Origin: a bacterium
Lineage (GTDB): Bacteria > Patescibacteriota > Minisyncoccia > Minisyncoccales > GCA-002788555
DNA length: 55,202 nucleotides
Assembly (NCBI GenBank): GCA_021158595.1
Contig: JAGGUF010000072.1
Span: 1-55,202 of the forward strand
Direction: 5' to 3'
Under the pieces are notes generated by a model, which had not been told where the DNA came from, made no database searches, and saw only the letters and a list, made by a program, of their open reading frames with translations. The translations under genes were made by a program, and so were the position numbers. The first letter of the stretch is position 1, and the number at the start of each line of letters is the position of its first letter. Of the stretch, positions 4,360 through 55,202 are shown piece by piece.

Positions 4360-4488
4360 CCCCTCCCCCCTCCTTAATCCTCCCCCTCCCTGTGGGAGGG
4401 GGAGGATATAGGTGGGGGAGGGATTTCCCGCTCCACGCTCCACGCTTCAGGTAATTCTCAAACCCCTACCAAGTGGTTGGCAATTACA
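4360..4488. repeat. Hairpin-core repeat with extended flank (CACGCTTCAGG ... GGCAATTACA)
   Basis: Core 4360-4422: CCCCTCCCCCCTCCTTAATCCTCCCCCTCCC-TGTG-GGAGGGGGAGGATATAGGTGGGGGAGGG. The flank matches the reverse complement of 38248-38326. Confidence 0.85.
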
Positions 4489-9675: not shown

Positions 9676-9983
9676 TGTACAGTTTCACCACATTGTTTAC
9701 AATACTTTTTACAATAATAAGGAATTTCCTCCCCTTCCTTAATCCTCCCCCTCCCTCTGGGAGGAGGAAGAAATTGAGGAGATCCTCCTTAATCCTCCCC
9801 CTCCCTTTGGGAGCGGCGAGGATATAGATGGGTTTCCTTTCAAATCCTCCCCCTCCCTTTGGGAGGGGGAGGAGATAGGTGGGGGAGGGAAAAATAAAAA
9901 TAAATATAGGAAAAGGCAAAAGTCAAATACAAAGATTAAAGAGAAATTTGTCCTAATTGTGAACAACGTGGTGAAACTTTACA
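9676..9983. mobile_element. MITE-like non-coding element: 28-bp terminal inverted repeats enclosing three tandem hairpin cores
   Basis: Left end TGTACAGTTTCACCACATTGTTTACAAT (9676-9703). Reverse complement of the right end is TGTAAAGTTTCACCACGTTGTTCACAAT (9956-9983); 25/28 identical. The interior holds three core units (9738-9898). No ORF with coding character. Confidence 0.7.
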
Positions 9984-21906: not shown

Positions 21907-21927
21907 AGATTCTTATATGTGAGGTTT

Positions 21928-21996
21928 CCCTCCCCCACCTATATCCTCCCTCTCCCAGAGGGAGGGGGAGGATTAAGGAGGGGGTGAAACTGTACA
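21928..21996. repeat. Hairpin-core repeat (opposite orientation) plus partial terminal repeat
   Basis: CCCTCCCCCACCTATATCCTCCCTCTCCC-AGAG-GGAGGGGGAGGATTAAGGAGGGG, then GGTGAAACTGTACA (reverse complement of the 9676 terminal repeat start). Ends 1 nt before the stop codon of the 21998 gene. Confidence 0.8.
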
Positions 21997-36755: not shown

Positions 36756-36910
36756 TAAAGTTTCAGCACATTTAACCCCTCTTTGTATTCCTCCCCTTAA
36801 AAAGGGGGAGGAAATTGAGGTGTGGTATTCTCCTAAAAGAGAAAATAAGGACCCTCTCCAAATCCTCCCCCTCTCTCTGGGAGAGGAGGATTAAGGTGGG
36901 GGAGGAAAAG
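36756..36910. repeat. Repeat cluster: partial terminal repeat plus two Y/R hairpins
   Basis: TAAAGTTTCAGCACATTT (36756-36773) resembles the 9676 terminal repeat. Hairpins: CCTCCCC-TTAAAAA-GGGGAGG (36790-36811) and AATCCTCCCCCTCTC-TCT-GGGAGAGGAGGATT (36861-36892). Lies upstream of rpsT. Confidence 0.7.
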
Positions 36911-38247: not shown

Positions 38248-38470
38248 TGTAATTGCCCACATCTTGATAAGGATCTGGGATTGCCTGAAGCGTGAAACGC
38301 AAATTTCCAAAATTAAATCTCAAATTCCCCCACCTATATCCTCCCCCTTCCAGAGGGAGGGGGAGGATTAAGGAGGGGATCCTAAATCCCAAACGTTTGG
38401 AATTTGGAATTTCGTTCGCCCAGCCCTACTTTTGGAACAAAAGTGGGGCTGGGTTTCGGATTTCTCCCCC
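38248..38470. repeat. Composite repeat: GGCAATTACA/CACGCTTCAGG flank (inverted), hairpin core, AT-rich units, GGGGCTGGG hairpin
   Basis: Core 38327-38378: CCCCCACCTATATCCTCCCCCTTCC-AGAG-GGAGGGGGAGGATTAAGGAGGGG. Hairpin 38419-38453: CCCAGCCCTACTTTTG-GAAC-AAAAGTGGGGCTGGG. Fills the holA/acyP convergent spacer. Confidence 0.85.
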
Positions 38471-41571: not shown

Positions 41572-41614
41572 ATAAATCTCAAAATTACAATCTAAAATGC
41601 AAAATAAAACAAAT

Positions 41615-41863
41615 CTTAAATGTTAGATGTCAAATCTCAAATCCATATGTCAAATCTCAAATCTAAATACAGTAAAGAAAAATCCGAAATTCTAAATCCT
41701 AATGTTTCAAATTTTAAACGTTTGGGATTTCGGATTTCCCTTCCCCTCCTTAATCCTCCCCCTCCCTCTGGGAGGGGGAGGATATAGGTGGGGGAGGGAA
41801 AATCCCAAATCCTAAATTCTAAACGTTTGAGATTTGGAACAAAAGTGGGGCTGGGTTTCGGAT
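41615..41863. repeat. Composite repeat: tandem ATGTCAAATCTCAAATC units, hairpin core, AT-rich units, half GGGGCTGGG module
   Basis: 17-nt direct repeat at 41627-41643 and 41647-41663. Core 41738-41798: CCCTTCCCCTCCTTAATCCTCCCCCTCCC-TCTG-GGAGGGGGAGGATATAGGTGGGGGAGGG. GGAACAAAAGTGGGGCTGGGTTTCGGAT at 41836-41863. Confidence 0.85.
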
Positions 41864-46497: not shown

Positions 46498-48149
<1,652 letters not shown>

Positions 48150-49145: not shown

Positions 49146-49353
49146 AACCAATAAGGTTATATCCAAGATGAAAGTTGACACCTTTTTACCATCTTACATA
49201 TTATGGACAAAACTGGAAATATTTCCAATGTTTTTAATAATCCCTCCCCCTCCTTAATCCTCCCCCTCCCTTTGGGAGGGGGAGGATATAGGTGGGAGAG
49301 GGAAATCTTCCTCTATTAACTGTTAACTTTTATTTTGCATTCAACCAATAAGG
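49146..49353. repeat. Repeat copy flanked by 11-bp direct repeats (atpA/atpG spacer)
   Basis: AACCAATAAGG at 49146-49156 and 49343-49353. Core 49242-49302: CCCTCCCCCTCCTTAATCCTCCCCCTCCC-TTTG-GGAGGGGGAGGATATAGGTGGGAGAGGG. Confidence 0.75.
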
Positions 49354-52079: not shown

Positions 52080-52832
52080 TTATTTTTCACCCAAATCTTG
52101 AGACCTTGAATTTGCGACCTTTTGTTGTTGAGAATGCTCTGTGGCGCTAGTATAAAAAATGACTACCAGAGAAGAAAAGATAAGAGCCTGTATAAACCCC
52201 ACAATAATTTCTAATGCCAAAAATGGTAGAGGAACAAAATAGGCAATCAAAAAGGAACTAATTATCAAAAGCACCTCTCCGGCAAATATATTCCCAAACA
52301 ACCGAAAGGCAAGAGAAAAACACTTGGTAATCTCACTTATCCCTTCTAAAATGCCTACAAAAAAGAGAATAGGATTCTTGAAATTTAAAAATCTTTTAGA
52401 ATAGGTAAAAAAGCCTAATCGTTTAAGAGAAAGGATATTTATAAAAATAATAGAGAAAAGAGCCAAGCCAAGAGTAAGATTTAAATCAGAGGTTGGAGCC
52501 CGCAAAAAATGAAAAACTCCCAATCCTGGAAGCAATTCTACATAGTTACAAAAAAGAATAAGAATAAAAAGAGTAGCGGCTATAGGAAAAATCTCTTTGG
52601 TCTTTTTTCTATCACGGGTAATAGAATCAATGAAATTAAAAATAGACTCCAAAATCCATTCAGCAAAATTTTGGAGTCTGGAAGGAATAAACTTCCTATT
52701 TTTAAAAACAAAATAGAAAACAGCAAAAATAAGAATCTCAATAATGAGACTCAAAAGAAAGGTGTTTGTTATATCAAAACCAAAGAGCCCAAATAGTTTC
52801 TCTCCAGAAATAGTAATATCAGGCATCCCCAT
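52080..52832 (-). CDS. atpB: ATP synthase Fo a subunit
   Basis: Polytopic; conserved Arg helix SLAFRLFGNIFAGE. Confidence 0.9.
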   Translation of the reverse strand: MGMPDITISGEKLFGLFGFDITNTFLLSLIIEILIFAVFYFVFKNRKFIPSRLQNFAEWILESIFNFIDSITRDRKKTKEIFPIAATLFILILFCNYVELLPGLGVFHFLRAPTSDLNLTLGLALFSIIFINILSLKRLGFFTYSKRFLNFKNPILFFVGILEGISEITKCFSLAFRLFGNIFAGEVLLIISSFLIAYFVPLPFLALEIIVGFIQALIFSSLVVIFYTSATEHSQQQKVANSRSQDLGEK

Positions 52833-52944
52833 ATAATAGATATAAAGAAGTTTTTGTTCTTATTTTAGAGATTAAAAATCTCAATACCTTGTATTATTCT
52901 TTCTGCTAAAAATTATATACCTTTTTACCTATCTCTGTCAAGAT

Positions 52945-53053
52945 CCCTCCCTCACCTCTCTCCTCCCCCTTCCCAGAGGGAGGAGGATTGGGGAGGATCT
53001 CCTCAGTTATCCTCCCCCTCCCTTTGGGAGGGGGAGGACTAAGGAGGGGTGGG
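52945..53053. repeat. Two adjacent hairpin-core repeats upstream of the atp operon
   Basis: 52945-52996: CCCTCCCTCACCTCTCTCCTCCCCCTTCCC-AGAG-GGAGGAGGATTGGGGAGG. 53009-53053: ATCCTCCCCCTCCC-TTTG-GGAGGGGGAGGACTAAGGAGGGGTGGG. Confidence 0.85.
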
Positions 53054-53137
53054 AGAATATCAGATCTTACCAAACTCTTTATTTAGCCAATGGATGATCT
53101 TTAACTGTACCCTATGTACCCGACGAGTTCTACCCCC

Positions 53138-53166
53138 TTGACAAGATTTTGGTGATATGCTATAAT
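53138..53166 (+). promoter_or_regulatory. Perfect consensus sigma70 promoter with extended -10
   Basis: TTGACA (53138-53143), 17-nt spacer, TGcTATAAT (-10 at 53161-53166). Confidence 0.7.
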
Positions 53167-53170
53167 GTAG

Positions 53171-53534
53171 ACGGAAAAATAAAGGAGGCTTTGAAAATTA
53201 AAGCGTATGGGCCAGATTGACCTCGCTCCTTAAGATTTAAGAGCAGGGTCGGTCAGCCCTCGCTATTATTAGTAATGAGTGCCTCCCAGCCCCACCTTTT
53301 GGCTGAAGATTTTAGCCAAAAGTGGGGCTGGGTGCACTCCTTACTAAAGGAGTAATAGCACTTTTACAAAGGCACTCAAAGGGGAAGGAGAGAATAATTC
53401 TCTGTGGCCAAGGATTGCTTATCAATATACAAAATGGTAAGTAATCCTCGGCCACAGAGATTTGCAATTTCAGTGATTCAATGACGAAAAAAAATGGGCC
53501 AATAAAAATAAAAGTTAGGAGGTGAAAAGAAAAA
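53171..53534 (+). ncRNA. Candidate structured RNA / long 5' leader
   Basis: No credible ORF. Three long hairpins: H1 53209-53259 (with G-U pairs that only work on the + strand), H2 53271-53345 (contains the GGGGCTGGG repeat hairpin 53285-53332), H3 53399-53460. Confidence 0.4.
53399..53460 (+). promoter_or_regulatory. Long hairpin following a conserved AGCAC box (unit 1)
   Basis: TCTCTGTGGCC/GGCCACAGAGA plus AGGATT/AATCCT. The loop contains TTATCAAT...TGGTA. Box AGCACTTTTACAAAGGCACTCAAAGGGGAAGGAGA at 53357-53391. Confidence 0.55.
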
Positions 53535-53894
53535 ATGGAGGAAGAAATGAAAGAGGAAAAAAAGGAAAGGCCATCGCATCCTCCAAGGGAAGAATTCCTT
53601 GCTGTGAAGACAGCGAGGGAACTGATAAAGAAGAGAAGTGAAGAGATACAGAAAATACGAGAGAGACAATCGAAAGCAACCAAGTTTTTGGTCGCCCTCG
53701 ATGATATTCGTCAAGAACTACAAGTAAACTTCATTAAATTTACGTTCCAAGACGGAACAATGATTATCAGGGATGTAGACGAAAAGCGGTTCTACATACA
53801 AAAGGGGAACGAAAGAAAAGAGATTGACGTTCAGAAGGACTATGACCTCGTGCTCCATCTAGCGAAGCAGAAAGTATTACAGGTTGAAGGATAG
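53535..53894 (+). CDS. Hypothetical protein (orphan, E/K/R-rich)
   Basis: 119 aa. A strong Shine-Dalgarno AGGAGGTGA sits 9 nt upstream, unlike most genes in the window. Composition is visibly GC-richer than the neighbouring genes. Confidence 0.6.
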   Translation: MEEEMKEEKKERPSHPPREEFLAVKTARELIKKRSEEIQKIRERQSKATKFLVALDDIRQELQVNFIKFTFQDGTMIIRDVDEKRFYIQKGNERKEIDVQKDYDLVLHLAKQKVLQVEG

Positions 53895-54037
53895 AAATAA
53901 AACACCTTTTATTTTTTCTCCTTCCTTCCTTTTTTCAGTCCATAAATTGAGTTTGTGGATTGAAAAAAGCCCTCAACCTTAAGGGTTGAGGGGAAAAGCA
54001 CCTTAAAAAGGCACTCAAAGAGGAAGGAGAAGGAGAA

Positions 54038-54092
54038 TTCACATCACCCGAATTGTTTATCAATTTTTGGTAGATAGTTCGGGTGATGTGAA
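54038..54092 (+). promoter_or_regulatory. Perfect 15-bp hairpin occluding the ribosome-binding site of the next ORF (unit 2)
   Basis: TTCACATCACCCGAA / TTCGGGTGATGTGAA. The 3' arm contains GGTGAT (SD-like) and ends 2 nt before the ATG at 54095. The loop contains TTATCAAT...TGGTA. Box AGCACCTTAAAAAGGCACTCAAAGAGGAAGGAGA at 53997-54030. Confidence 0.6.
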
Positions 54093-54094
54093 AA

Positions 54095-54970
54095 ATGAAT
54101 ATAATAAAGAAAAAAAAGGTGGTGAAGGTACAGCTGAAGGGACAGGGCACGGGCTATAGTGCCCTGGACAAGGAATTCATAAGGTTCATAGAGGAAAGAG
54201 GCATCACTCCGCTCCGCAGAGAATCAGGCCTCATTCGCCATACCTCCTGGCAGTACGAGACATACGTGTTCGGAAAAAGGTACTTCCAGAAATTCGAGGA
54301 AGACCTCAGGAAGGTGCTGGATGAGCGAGAAAAAGAGCTGAATATTAGAAGAGAAGTAGATTTTTATATAGAACAACTTTTCAGTTATGTAATCAGGTAT
54401 GCAAGAAGAGAAGGGATAGGCAATGAAGAAGAAATTGAGAAAGAAATCAAGGAATGGGGACTTAGTCCCCTTACGATAAAAATCATCAAATTACTCAGTG
54501 AATATCCAGAGGAAGCGGCGGATGATATAGTGGCAAAGATAGTGAAGCGAGCGATAGCAGAGGGAAAATACAAAAAAAATGAGGACTGGGAGGTCGCCCT
54601 ATGCGGGCGACGATGGAGTTTCGTAGAAGATGAACATTGGATTTACAAGGTAATTAAAGAGGATTGCCGGAAGGAAATTCTTCCAAAGTACCAAGAATTC
54701 AGAAGGTATCTTGGAGATTTCTATTTTGGCAGCGAACTTTCCTCCGCCTCCATCGATGAGCAGAAAGAAGCGTTGAAAAGATGGGGAGAAGCAGCCAAAA
54801 AGCTTAGAGAAGTGCTCGGAAAGTCCGTGGGCATTTACCCAGATTGCATTTATCTGGGTAAATGTAGTGAGGAAAATCTAAAAAAAGCCAGAGAGGCGGT
54901 GAAAGTCTTTGGGATGTCAGTAATACCAATGCCCCAGTACAAAGACCAGTTTATCGTAGTAATCCAGTAA
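54095..54970 (+). CDS. Hypothetical protein (orphan)
   Basis: 291-aa ORF with C/G-ending codons (CTG, GGC, CGC, GCC, TAC) that are rare elsewhere in the window. No motif recognised. Confidence 0.6.
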   Translation: MNIIKKKKVVKVQLKGQGTGYSALDKEFIRFIEERGITPLRRESGLIRHTSWQYETYVFGKRYFQKFEEDLRKVLDEREKELNIRREVDFYIEQLFSYVIRYARREGIGNEEEIEKEIKEWGLSPLTIKIIKLLSEYPEEAADDIVAKIVKRAIAEGKYKKNEDWEVALCGRRWSFVEDEHWIYKVIKEDCRKEILPKYQEFRRYLGDFYFGSELSSASIDEQKEALKRWGEAAKKLREVLGKSVGIYPDCIYLGKCSEENLKKAREAVKVFGMSVIPMPQYKDQFIVVIQ

Positions 54971-55060
54971 TCCCTTCTCCTTCCCTTTTTTCCCTTTTTC
55001 TAGCGGACAAAAATTTGTCAATTAGAAAAAGGAAAATAGCACTTTAAAAAATTCAAAATT

Positions 55061-55150
55061 CCTCCTGCTGATTAAGATTCTAAGAATCGCGAATTTACAC
55101 AAATATAAACACGAATTTTCGCGAATTTTAGAGTTTTAATCAGCAGGAGG
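55061..55150 (+). promoter_or_regulatory. Perfect 15-bp outer hairpin ending at an ATG (unit 3)
   Basis: CCTCCTGCTGATTAA / TTAATCAGCAGGAGG enclose an inner TCGCGA-containing repeat pair. The 5' arm carries anti-SD-like CCTCC and the 3' arm AGGAGG. AGCACTTTAAAAAA box at 55038. Confidence 0.55.
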
Positions 55151-55202
55151 ATGAAACTTCTGCTGAGGAGGAGAAAGATGAGAGAAGGAGAAGGAAGAAA
55201 AA
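55151..55202 (+). CDS. Partial ORF running off the window end
   Basis: ATG at 55151 and an in-frame ATG at 55178. The latter is preceded by GAGGAGGA at 5-nt spacing and is the more likely start. Only 17 codons are visible. Confidence 0.25.
   Translation, partial: MKLLLRRRKMREGEGRK

Follow-up and report, generated by a model that had tools for sequence, protein, structure and literature searches.

Results

A structured interval ahead of four same-strand genes

We study a window of 55,202 nucleotides (nt), the whole stretch of contig JAGGUF010000072.1 (assembly GCA_021158595.1) that was analysed, and in it the interval 53138-53534, which an initial annotation had described as about 360 nt of non-coding, highly structured RNA driven by a perfect consensus promoter. 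The host is a low-GC (34.9%) bacterium, and the interval sits in a 702-nt gap between atpB (52080-52832, - strand, Pfam ATP-synt_A) and an open reading frame (ORF) of 119 amino acids (aa) at 53535. Among 185,579 species representatives (GTDB), the closest relative of this atpB is 45% identical, and the top matches all come from metagenome-assembled genomes of Patescibacteria, the candidate phyla radiation (CPR). Patescibacteria carry large fractions of orphan genes, and their gene regulation is poorly understood. For comparison we use L001-L010, conspecific contigs (97.6-99.8% identical) that extend the locus past the window end, 605 kb of related CPR contigs retrieved by a metagenome scan using the genome's commonest repeat, and a homologous array from another Patescibacteria species (L223), which supplies the sole homologous leader. 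Synteny through atpB offers no further comparison: at 45% identity the best relative is too distant for an empty site to be recognised, and the metagenome loci contain no atp operon.

Four genes follow the interval on the + strand (Table 1). ORF1 and ORF2 are orphans, with no homologue in a set of 5.8 billion proteins or in an exhaustive search of 1.84 billion, so that orthologous leaders cannot be reached through them; the AlphaFold2 model of ORF2 (pLDDT 45) is unusable. Against Pfam, PHROGs, PADLOC and NCBIfam, the four proteins give only a weak DHH match, for ORF4. The 3' part of the locus is seen in L001 (7147-8420), which holds ORF3, ORF4 and the terminator, a GGAGGAAGG/CCTTCCTCC hairpin with a T-run 3' of ORF4 that is conserved in L223 and in contig L222. 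A homologue of ORF4 (67% identical) ends the L223 array, in which 13 same-strand ORFs encode proteins without Pfam matches and which lies between tRNA-Gly/tRNA-Thr and a release-factor gene. DHH-like phosphoesterases of about 300 aa (P0004-P0060; motifs HGDLDG and DHH) are widespread in Patescibacteria, one source annotating a member of the family as NrnB/cAMP-cGMP phosphodiesterase-like, and at the 3' end of the orphan arrays no gene but the DHH-like one is conserved. L006 and L008 have it fused to, or overlapping with, ORF3 through an indel.

A consensus promoter without a terminator before ORF1

The promoter holds up at every position: TTGACA (53138-53143), a 17-nt spacer with the TG of an extended -10 element, and TATAAT (53161-53166) make a + strand sigma-70 promoter that scores 12/12. 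Such sites are rare, with seven perfect TTGACA-N16-18-TATAAT sequences in 671 kb (this genome and related genomes), and two of the seven stand back to back in this very intergenic region. Two other organisms, L223 and L175, keep the promoter sequence; the L223 copy (1839-1867) matches that of the window at 27 of 29 positions, and the array there also keeps the first ~30 transcribed nt. Transcription would start at about 53171-53174. From 53166 to ORF1 a scan turns up no further + strand promoter, nor does it find one within the operon up to the end of ORF4. A search for intrinsic terminators from 53166 to ORF1 returns none, only a single weak 5-bp site (53245-53260); no U-tract follows any of the three long helices of the interval (H1, H2 and H3, Table 1), and no U-tract terminator appears before the end of ORF4. 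The initial annotation had left the choice between a riboregulator, a large leader and a stand-alone non-coding RNA (ncRNA); with neither a terminator nor a second promoter ahead of the genes, the large leader fits best. Regulation by terminator attenuation or by leader-peptide attenuation was considered and rejected, there being no U-tract after H1-H3 and no small ORF with a ribosome-binding site (RBS).

Folding and coding potential

The 363 nt from 53172 to 53534 fold at -145.6 kcal/mol, compared with -87.8 +/- 4.9 kcal/mol for shuffled sequences (z = -11.8), and the three long helices first noticed in the sequence are borne out. The reverse complement is also strongly folded (z = -10), almost matching the + strand, which marks the helices as DNA palindromes. 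Strand by strand, H1 (21 pairs) reaches -25.5 kcal/mol on the + strand and -23.7 on the - strand, with 3 G-U pairs on each; the G-U pairs of H1, put forward as a reason to read the RNA from the + strand, are thus a weak argument. The corresponding values are -53.1 and -50.1 kcal/mol for H2 (33 pairs) and -41.4 and -36.9 kcal/mol for H3 (28 pairs). A clear asymmetry is confined to H3 and its paralogue, the hairpin ahead of ORF2 (-37.7/-24.6 kcal/mol); the energy pairs that favour the + strand are -41.4/-36.9, -37.7/-24.6 and -50.5/-41.4 kcal/mol.

As first proposed, the interval is non-coding in the sense that none of its frames has an RBS. The frames are not confined to the 8-26 codons given initially, since a 40-codon GTG frame (53322-53444) is present, which begins within the H2 stem and lacks an RBS. 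In the same-species contigs L003, L004 and L006, the sequence at window 53469-53500 changes from TTTCAGTGATTCAATGACG to GGAAGTGTGCAGTGGAGGT and carries three extra A's; the variant removes the stop codons and so opens ORF1 back to an ATG within the H3 loop (called at 154-164 aa), and part of H3 may be coding in these strains. The view that the interval belongs to no named Rfam family agrees with a search at the gathering threshold, which across the whole window finds only RNase P and three tRNAs, all elsewhere, and with a search at E <= 10 over 52800-55202, which finds only sub-threshold, generic hairpin matches of miRNA type on both strands. H1-H3 are identical in the five strains that cover them, the same strains that vary at 53469-53500; divergence within the species (~1%) is too low for covariation in the helices to be assessed from L001-L010.

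H1 and H2 are lineage-specific, and the H2 core is a dispersed palindrome

The first two helices have a different standing from the third. A second copy of H1 was not found, nor was a distant homologue of either H1 or H2, and L223 does not keep H1. Just 13 nt of H1 (GACCTCGCTCCTT-like) are in common with a palindrome family, CCTCGCYCC, that adjoins H2-type units elsewhere, a resemblance that is at most suggestive.

H2 is composite. As had been noted, there is a second copy of its core, CCCAGCCCCAC..GTGGGGCTGGG, at 38419-38453; it is a full hairpin and lies between convergent genes. The other copy listed at the outset (41836-41856) turns out to hold only the 3' half. Beyond these 2.5 copies in the window, we find 12 full hairpins in 11 other loci of the related contigs, and related genomes have the core at 13 or more other intergenic sites. 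When 14 sequences are aligned, 97.6% of the cells are paired and six pairs have changed on both sides (e.g. CCC/GGG, ACC/GGT, CTC/GAG); none of 500 shuffles equals this. All 17 copies examined are intergenic (between ORFs of at least 90 aa, overlapping frames being spurious) and set in mosaics of other repeats. The core is therefore a short imperfect palindrome in many dispersed, covarying and exclusively extragenic copies, which makes H2 an element like the repetitive extragenic palindromes (REPs), set inside a local outer stem, whose 3' arm overlaps the small hairpin at 53336-53353, so that the two structures are alternatives. Neither H1 nor H2 aligns with the L223 leader, which has three other long hairpins in their place. 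Compensatory changes, which the initial annotation had expected of all three helices, are thus found in the H2 core and, as described below, in H3, while H1 shows none. H1 and H2 are probably either neutral insertions of repeats or generic structure at the 5' end that does no more than stabilise or insulate.

A module of small hairpin, box, purine tract and long hairpin recurs before the ORFs

H3, by contrast with H1, is one copy of a recurring unit. The window has three copies of a 14-nt box, AGCACYTTWAMAAA, at 53357, 53997 and 55038, and no others; each stands 5' of a long hairpin and an ORF. The box consensus is AGCAC(A/T)TT(G/A)AAAA(GCACTCAAA). After the first two boxes the 21-mer GGCACTCAAAGRGGAAGGAGA is repeated (2 occurrences against 0 expected). 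H3 and the ORF2 hairpin share a loop motif, TTATCAAT, and at 6 of their 11 outer pairs both sides have changed with pairing kept. The ORF2 and ORF3 hairpins have orthologues in L223, and together with H3 these reveal a further four compensatory pairs in the inner stem, where three G-U pairs are conserved as well. In single-sequence folds, a hairpin of 6-12 bp and of differing sequence lies 5' of every one of the 14 clear box copies.

Modules with hairpins stand 5' of 8-11 of the L223 ORFs, and further copies occur in L222, L156, L221, L224 and L225. In L221 a single DHH gene is laid out as promoter, box, hairpin and ATG. Distant DHH homologues (L224-L226, 44-48% identical) are found in ordinary contexts with only scattered module-like hairpins. 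The unit that precedes most L223 ORFs consists of a small hairpin, a box (AGCACATTGAAAAGCACTCAAATAAAGGGAAGGAGAAAA) and a long hairpin that ends 0-7 nt before the ATG, with an anti-Shine-Dalgarno motif on the 5' arm (ACCTCC, ACCTTC, CATCACC) and a Shine-Dalgarno (SD) sequence in the 3' arm (GGAGGT, GAGGT, GGTGATG). Likewise, the 3' arm of the module 2 long hairpin, GGGTGATG, is the likely SD of ORF2. We compare array genes with other genes of the window: the 80 nt upstream fold at a mean of -25.3 kcal/mol, versus -12.3 kcal/mol for 50 other window genes (p = 2e-7), and the median pairing probability of the SD region is 0.85 versus 0.51 (p = 0.005). Folding predicts an SD buried in a stable hairpin for ORF2 (P(paired) = 1.0) and for 12 of 22 array genes, but not for ORF1 (0.14).

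We tried the box as a promoter and rejected it, inspection and a scan giving no sigma-70 or sigma-54 match. The small hairpins before the boxes (window 53963-53996, and spacers in L223 and L222) have an A-run 5' and no U-run, so that they score as intrinsic terminators only in the antisense direction (e.g. 53992..53970 followed by TTTTTT); they may block antisense transcription into the array.

Table 1. Features of the locus and its surroundings (window positions unless a contig is named; hpA and hpB, small and long hairpin of a module)
Feature	Position	Strand	Description
Divergent perfect sigma-70 promoter	52912-52941	-	TTGACA-18-TATAAT; presumably drives the atp operon (atpB 52080-52832)
Degenerate copy of a repeat like a miniature inverted-repeat transposable element (MITE)	52945-53093	.	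Two D1 palindromes CCTCCCCCTCCC..GGGAGGGGGAGG and a right-end-like TACCAAACTCTTTATTTAGCCAATGG; between both promoters, outside the transcript
Promoter-upstream element	53106-53131	+	TGTACCC-TA-TGTACCC-GACGAGTTCT; also 5' of the -35 box in L175 and of the retron promoter in L119
SD-like AAAGGAGG	53181-53188	+	~10 nt from the presumed 5' end; no usable start codon; partly kept in L223 as AAAGAAAG
Small hairpin H0	53188-53204	+	7 pairs, -5.3 kcal/mol
H1	53209-53259	+	21-pair imperfect palindrome; species-specific
H2 outer stem	53271-53345	+	AGTAATGAGTGC/GCACTCCTTACT; unique to this locus
H2 core	53285-53332	.	CCCAGCnnCACTTTTG..CAAAAGTGnnGCTGGG; member of a REP-like palindrome family
Module 1, hpA	53336-53353	+	ACTCCTT-ACTA-AAGGAGT
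Module 1, box and tract	53357-53391	+	Box AGCACTTTTACAAA and purine-rich, SD-like tract GGCACTCAAAGGGGAAGGAGA
Module 1, hpB (H3)	53395-53464	+	Paralogue of the ORF2 hairpin and of two L223 hairpins
RBS and ORF1	53517-53524; 53535-53894	+	RBS AGGAGGTG, unpaired (P(paired) = 0.14); 119 aa, orphan
Module 2	53939-54092	+	Spacer hairpin TCCATAAA..TTTGTGGA; hpA 53970-53992; box 53997-54030; hpB 54038-54092
ORF2	54095-54970	+	291 aa, orphan
Module 3	55038-55202	+	Box 55038-55051; hpB 55060-55151 (TTCCTCCTGCTG../..CAGCAGGAGGA); then the ORF3 start at 55178
ORF3	starts 55178, runs off the window	+	90 aa, Cys-rich
ORF4	L001 7421-8356 (just past the window end)		311 aa, weak DHH match

The interval as a probable mosaic leader

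These observations make it probable, though well short of certain, that the interval is a promoter plus a ~363-nt mosaic 5' leader of a four-gene accessory operon in Patescibacteria (CPR), whose modules act in cis on the mRNA. Since a promoter, a dispersed palindrome and a recurring module are assembled here, the interval is probably not one dedicated ncRNA. The picture of a single coherent RNA of ~360 nt with three helices of its own finds no support: the H2 core is a dispersed repeat, H1 and H2 are absent from L223, and H3 is a repeated module. In the simplest model that the sequence comparison suggests, evolution would have retained no more than the promoter, the ~30 nt transcribed first and the module at 53336-53464. 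The operon would be transcribed as one mRNA from the promoter at 53138-53166 to the terminator after ORF4, and the modules would either gate the initiation of translation or mark processing or stabilising sites for each cistron; being repeated, they would also offer recombination substrates that shuffle the ORFs. The H3 copy would be uncoupled from ORF1, whose ATG lies 70 nt beyond the end of H3 and whose RBS lies ~50 nt beyond it in open sequence, and the free purine tract could act as a standby site for ribosomes. We consider action on the mRNA most likely because the G-U bias is to the coding strand, the hairpins contain anti-SD and SD sequences, and their distance to the ATG is fixed; for the mechanism itself we infer translation control, processing or recombination.

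Several points weigh against this reading. About eight loci, in about six organisms, make up the module family, and its box carries no assigned function. Burial of the SD is limited to about 12 of the 22 array genes. H3 sequesters no RBS and that of ORF1 is open, so that the proposed translational role does not apply to the module copy in this interval. H1 has no comparative support at all. For the small hairpins, RNAalifold gave no consensus and MAFFT misaligned them, which is the reason that single-sequence folds were used instead; the alignment of the module 3 hairpins is also poor. The transcription start, the read-through and any processing are all inferred, and the three helices are near-perfect palindromes, so that a role at the level of DNA is possible.

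Taken alone, the interval is an unusually long, structured 5' leader made partly of selfish palindromes, which is useful for annotation; it is not a new class of RNA. The new and interesting part is the recurring module: the orphan genes here stand in same-strand arrays under a conserved consensus promoter, with nearly every ORF preceded by the box and a hairpin whose structure is conserved while its sequence varies, and which tends to bury the RBS. A bolder proposal, which we put forward only tentatively and think rather unlikely, is that the module is a previously undescribed, portable cassette of Patescibacteria, combining post-transcriptional control of each cistron with a unit of recombination that reshuffles orphan arrays behind one conserved strong promoter, and so forming a gene-capture platform comparable in its working to an integron or to the phage cassettes discussed below, though without attC or a dedicated integrase. 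The organisation of the arrays, if confirmed, would give a clue to how accessory genes are regulated in reduced, episymbiotic bacteria without many transcription factors and to how new genes enter expression-ready positions, and would provide a searchable motif for such arrays in metagenomes.

Alternative explanations

The arrays can also be read at the level of DNA, with the modules (and H1 and H2) serving as recombination or mobility sites of a cassette-type array, much as attC sites do in integrons or the stem-loop cassettes in T4-type phages, their structure acting in single-stranded or cruciform DNA, and with the head promoter expressing captured ORFs. The plasticity of the arrays speaks for this, as gene content changes exactly at module borders. 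In L156, which lacks ORF2-4, the spacer after ORF1 is joined straight to the ORF3 hairpin and then to the right flank of the island. In L006 (5662-6330) the island is joined to a methyltransferase ORF exactly at the 5' foot of H3 (window 53394), such that the 5' arm and loop of H3 supply the last 16 codons and the stop of this ORF, which follows a ribosomal-protein operon (through S8). This junction either reflects recombination at the foot of the hairpin or is a chimera that the assembly made at a repeat. Hairpins and ORFs are, moreover, reshuffled relative to each other: the hairpins of L222_1467 and L223_4022 are non-homologous although these ORFs are homologues, and there are unrelated ORFs that follow homologous hairpins. 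The same-strand orphan ORFs behind a single strong promoter, the L223 array next to tRNA-Gly and tRNA-Thr, the 44% GC of the island against 35% for the genome, and stems that vary in sequence yet stay paired, as attC sites do, all fit as well. What tells against sites of the integron type is that the core sequences RYYYAAC/GTTRRRY form no R''/R' pair on either strand, whether in the 3.6 kb of the island or in the 8.2 kb of the L223 array, where shuffles give 0.7-1.6; we rejected an attC reading of the hairpins on this ground. Nor is any recombinase or integrase called near the three arrays, either within ~2 kb to the right of the island (L006) or on the whole L222 and L223 contigs. The anti-SD/SD sequences at the stem base, the fixed place beside the ATG and the conserved G-U pairs point to RNA of the coding strand, and the box is not promoter-like, unlike in the phage cassettes discussed below. 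On balance we find a purely DNA-level function unlikely, if worth keeping in mind. A viral origin finds no echo in IMG/VR, which contains no relative of ORF2, no box and no module; nine 16-mer matches to the H2 arm are at chance level.

Two further accounts concern the helices themselves, and we regard both as improbable. H1-H3 might together form one stand-alone ncRNA or riboregulator, trans-acting or a leader that senses a ligand or protein, as the very strong promoter, the extreme folding score and the lack of an ORF would allow, and as the alternative pairing, in which the 3' arm of the H2 outer stem instead forms the small hairpin at 53336-53353, might even suggest. Such an RNA should not, however, lack a terminator before ORF1, be without an Rfam match at the gathering threshold and with only generic miRNA-type matches on both strands by E-value, lose H1 and H2 in the sole homologous leader, contain a selfish-type repeat found at many unrelated intergenic sites, and end in a copy of an intercistronic module in place of a unique fold. 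The opposite account makes H1 and H2 functionless, MITE-like or REP-like palindromic repeats that have piled up in a wide gap between divergent promoters, with only the promoter and the module of consequence. A degenerate MITE-like element does lie in the same intergenic region, copies of the H2 core elsewhere sit within mosaics of simple repeats, H1 and H2 are missing from L223, and their strand asymmetry is negligible. Yet the L223 leader has three long, non-homologous hairpins at the same place, which suggests that structure as such is retained, and H1-H3 are invariant in strains that differ at 53469-53500, a weak point at a divergence of only ~1%.

Relation to known systems

Transcribed REP elements act as mRNA stabilisers or insulators. 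Like the REPs of enterobacteria and pseudomonads and the bacterial interspersed mosaic elements (BIMEs) that contain them, the H2 core is a near-perfect palindrome (32-48 nt) in dispersed, intergenic copies, often clustered with other repeats, and its arms covary; unlike them, it has an unrelated sequence and a Patescibacteria host, and the copy studied here lies in a 5' leader within an extra local stem, and not at a 3' end or between cistrons.

Hairpins that sequester an SD or are processed by RNase III are known between cistrons, for example in the early mRNA of phage T7 and in the lambda N leader. The modules resemble them in that long, near-perfect stems, whose 3' arm bears the predicted SD, lie just 5' of start codons along a presumed polycistronic mRNA. 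They differ in adding an upstream box that is conserved and a further SD-like tract that stays free. Integron arrays, with their attC sites and Pc promoter, share one strong head promoter, promoterless same-strand orphan ORFs, variable palindromes between them and variable content. Apart from the missing core sites, and the missing integrase or attI in the surroundings examined above (L006, L222, L223), the module hairpins differ from attC in carrying SD/anti-SD sequences and in following a conserved single-stranded box.

The promoter/stem-loop elements (PeSLs) of T4-type phages, described as mobile regulatory cassettes, consist of a sigma-70 promoter and a terminator stem-loop (PMC2839356, PMC4122927). 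Here too, copies of short, conserved regulatory motifs with stem-loops separate small orphan genes in hyperplastic regions, and copies that recombine could shuffle, delete or insert ORFs; that the repeats flank orphan ORFs is seen directly, and that they shuffle them is suggested by the comparison of arrays. The differences are considerable. None of the three modules has a + strand promoter-like site of at least 9/12, and their hairpins have no 3' U-tract on the + strand, the hairpin at 53970-53992 being terminator-like only on the - strand. The modules also place an SD-sequestering hairpin beside the ATG, and they lie on a bacterial chromosome and are absent from IMG/VR viral contigs.

The STAB-SD is a stabiliser at the 5' end of the Bacillus thuringiensis cry3A mRNA (PMC4113751). 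The 5'-proximal AAAGGAGG of the interval is likewise an SD-like sequence near the 5' end of a long leader that serves no start codon, and by this analogy it could possibly act as a 5' stabiliser of that kind; a homologue of RNase J is encoded in a related CPR genome (L226). In its L223 orthologue it is weakened, to AAAGAAAG.

Repeats and a retron in related sequences

The palindrome CCTCCCCCTCCC-NNN-GGGAGGGGGAGG has 12 copies in the 55-kb window. It is the core of a MITE-like element of ~160-200 nt whose terminal inverted repeats are GTACTATCCAATCAATTCGGTAAC / TACCAAATTGGTTAGCAATTAC and whose flanks are rich in TTAT, found at 20-84, 4361-4425, 9726-9892, 21927-21991, 36846-36910, 38322-38386, 41737-41801, 47981-48096, 49241-49305 and 52961-53057. 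Dozens of copies occur in the related CPR metagenome contigs (L100-L219), whose assemblies often break there. Short, tandem-like AT-rich motifs (aaatctcaaatc, tttggaatttgg, ttcggattt) flank palindromic units at 38380-38420, 41600-41730 and 41800-41840, in composite, BIME-like mosaics.

The element upstream of the promoter has a counterpart in a retron: in L119, the motif CGAGTTCT-N5-8-TTGAC, preceded by TGTACCCTATGTACCC, drives a retron of ncRNA and reverse transcriptase (RT). We rejected a retron reading of the leader itself, as the fold of 53172-53534 has local hairpins only and no a1/a2 closing stem, where the L119 retron has one of 12 bp, and as no reverse transcriptase is found among ORF1-4 (Pfam, PADLOC, NCBIfam). 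The L119 retron (1311-2809, - strand) comprises an ncRNA of ~130 nt with the 12-bp closing stem, which has no Rfam match, and a retron-type RT of 354 aa, whose best matches are retron RT III-A/II-A and St85. Its promoter motif reads TGTACCCTATGTACCCGACGAGTTCT-N8-TTGAC, direct repeats of ~80 nt lie on its flanks, and a gene for a TFIIB-repeat protein follows downstream.

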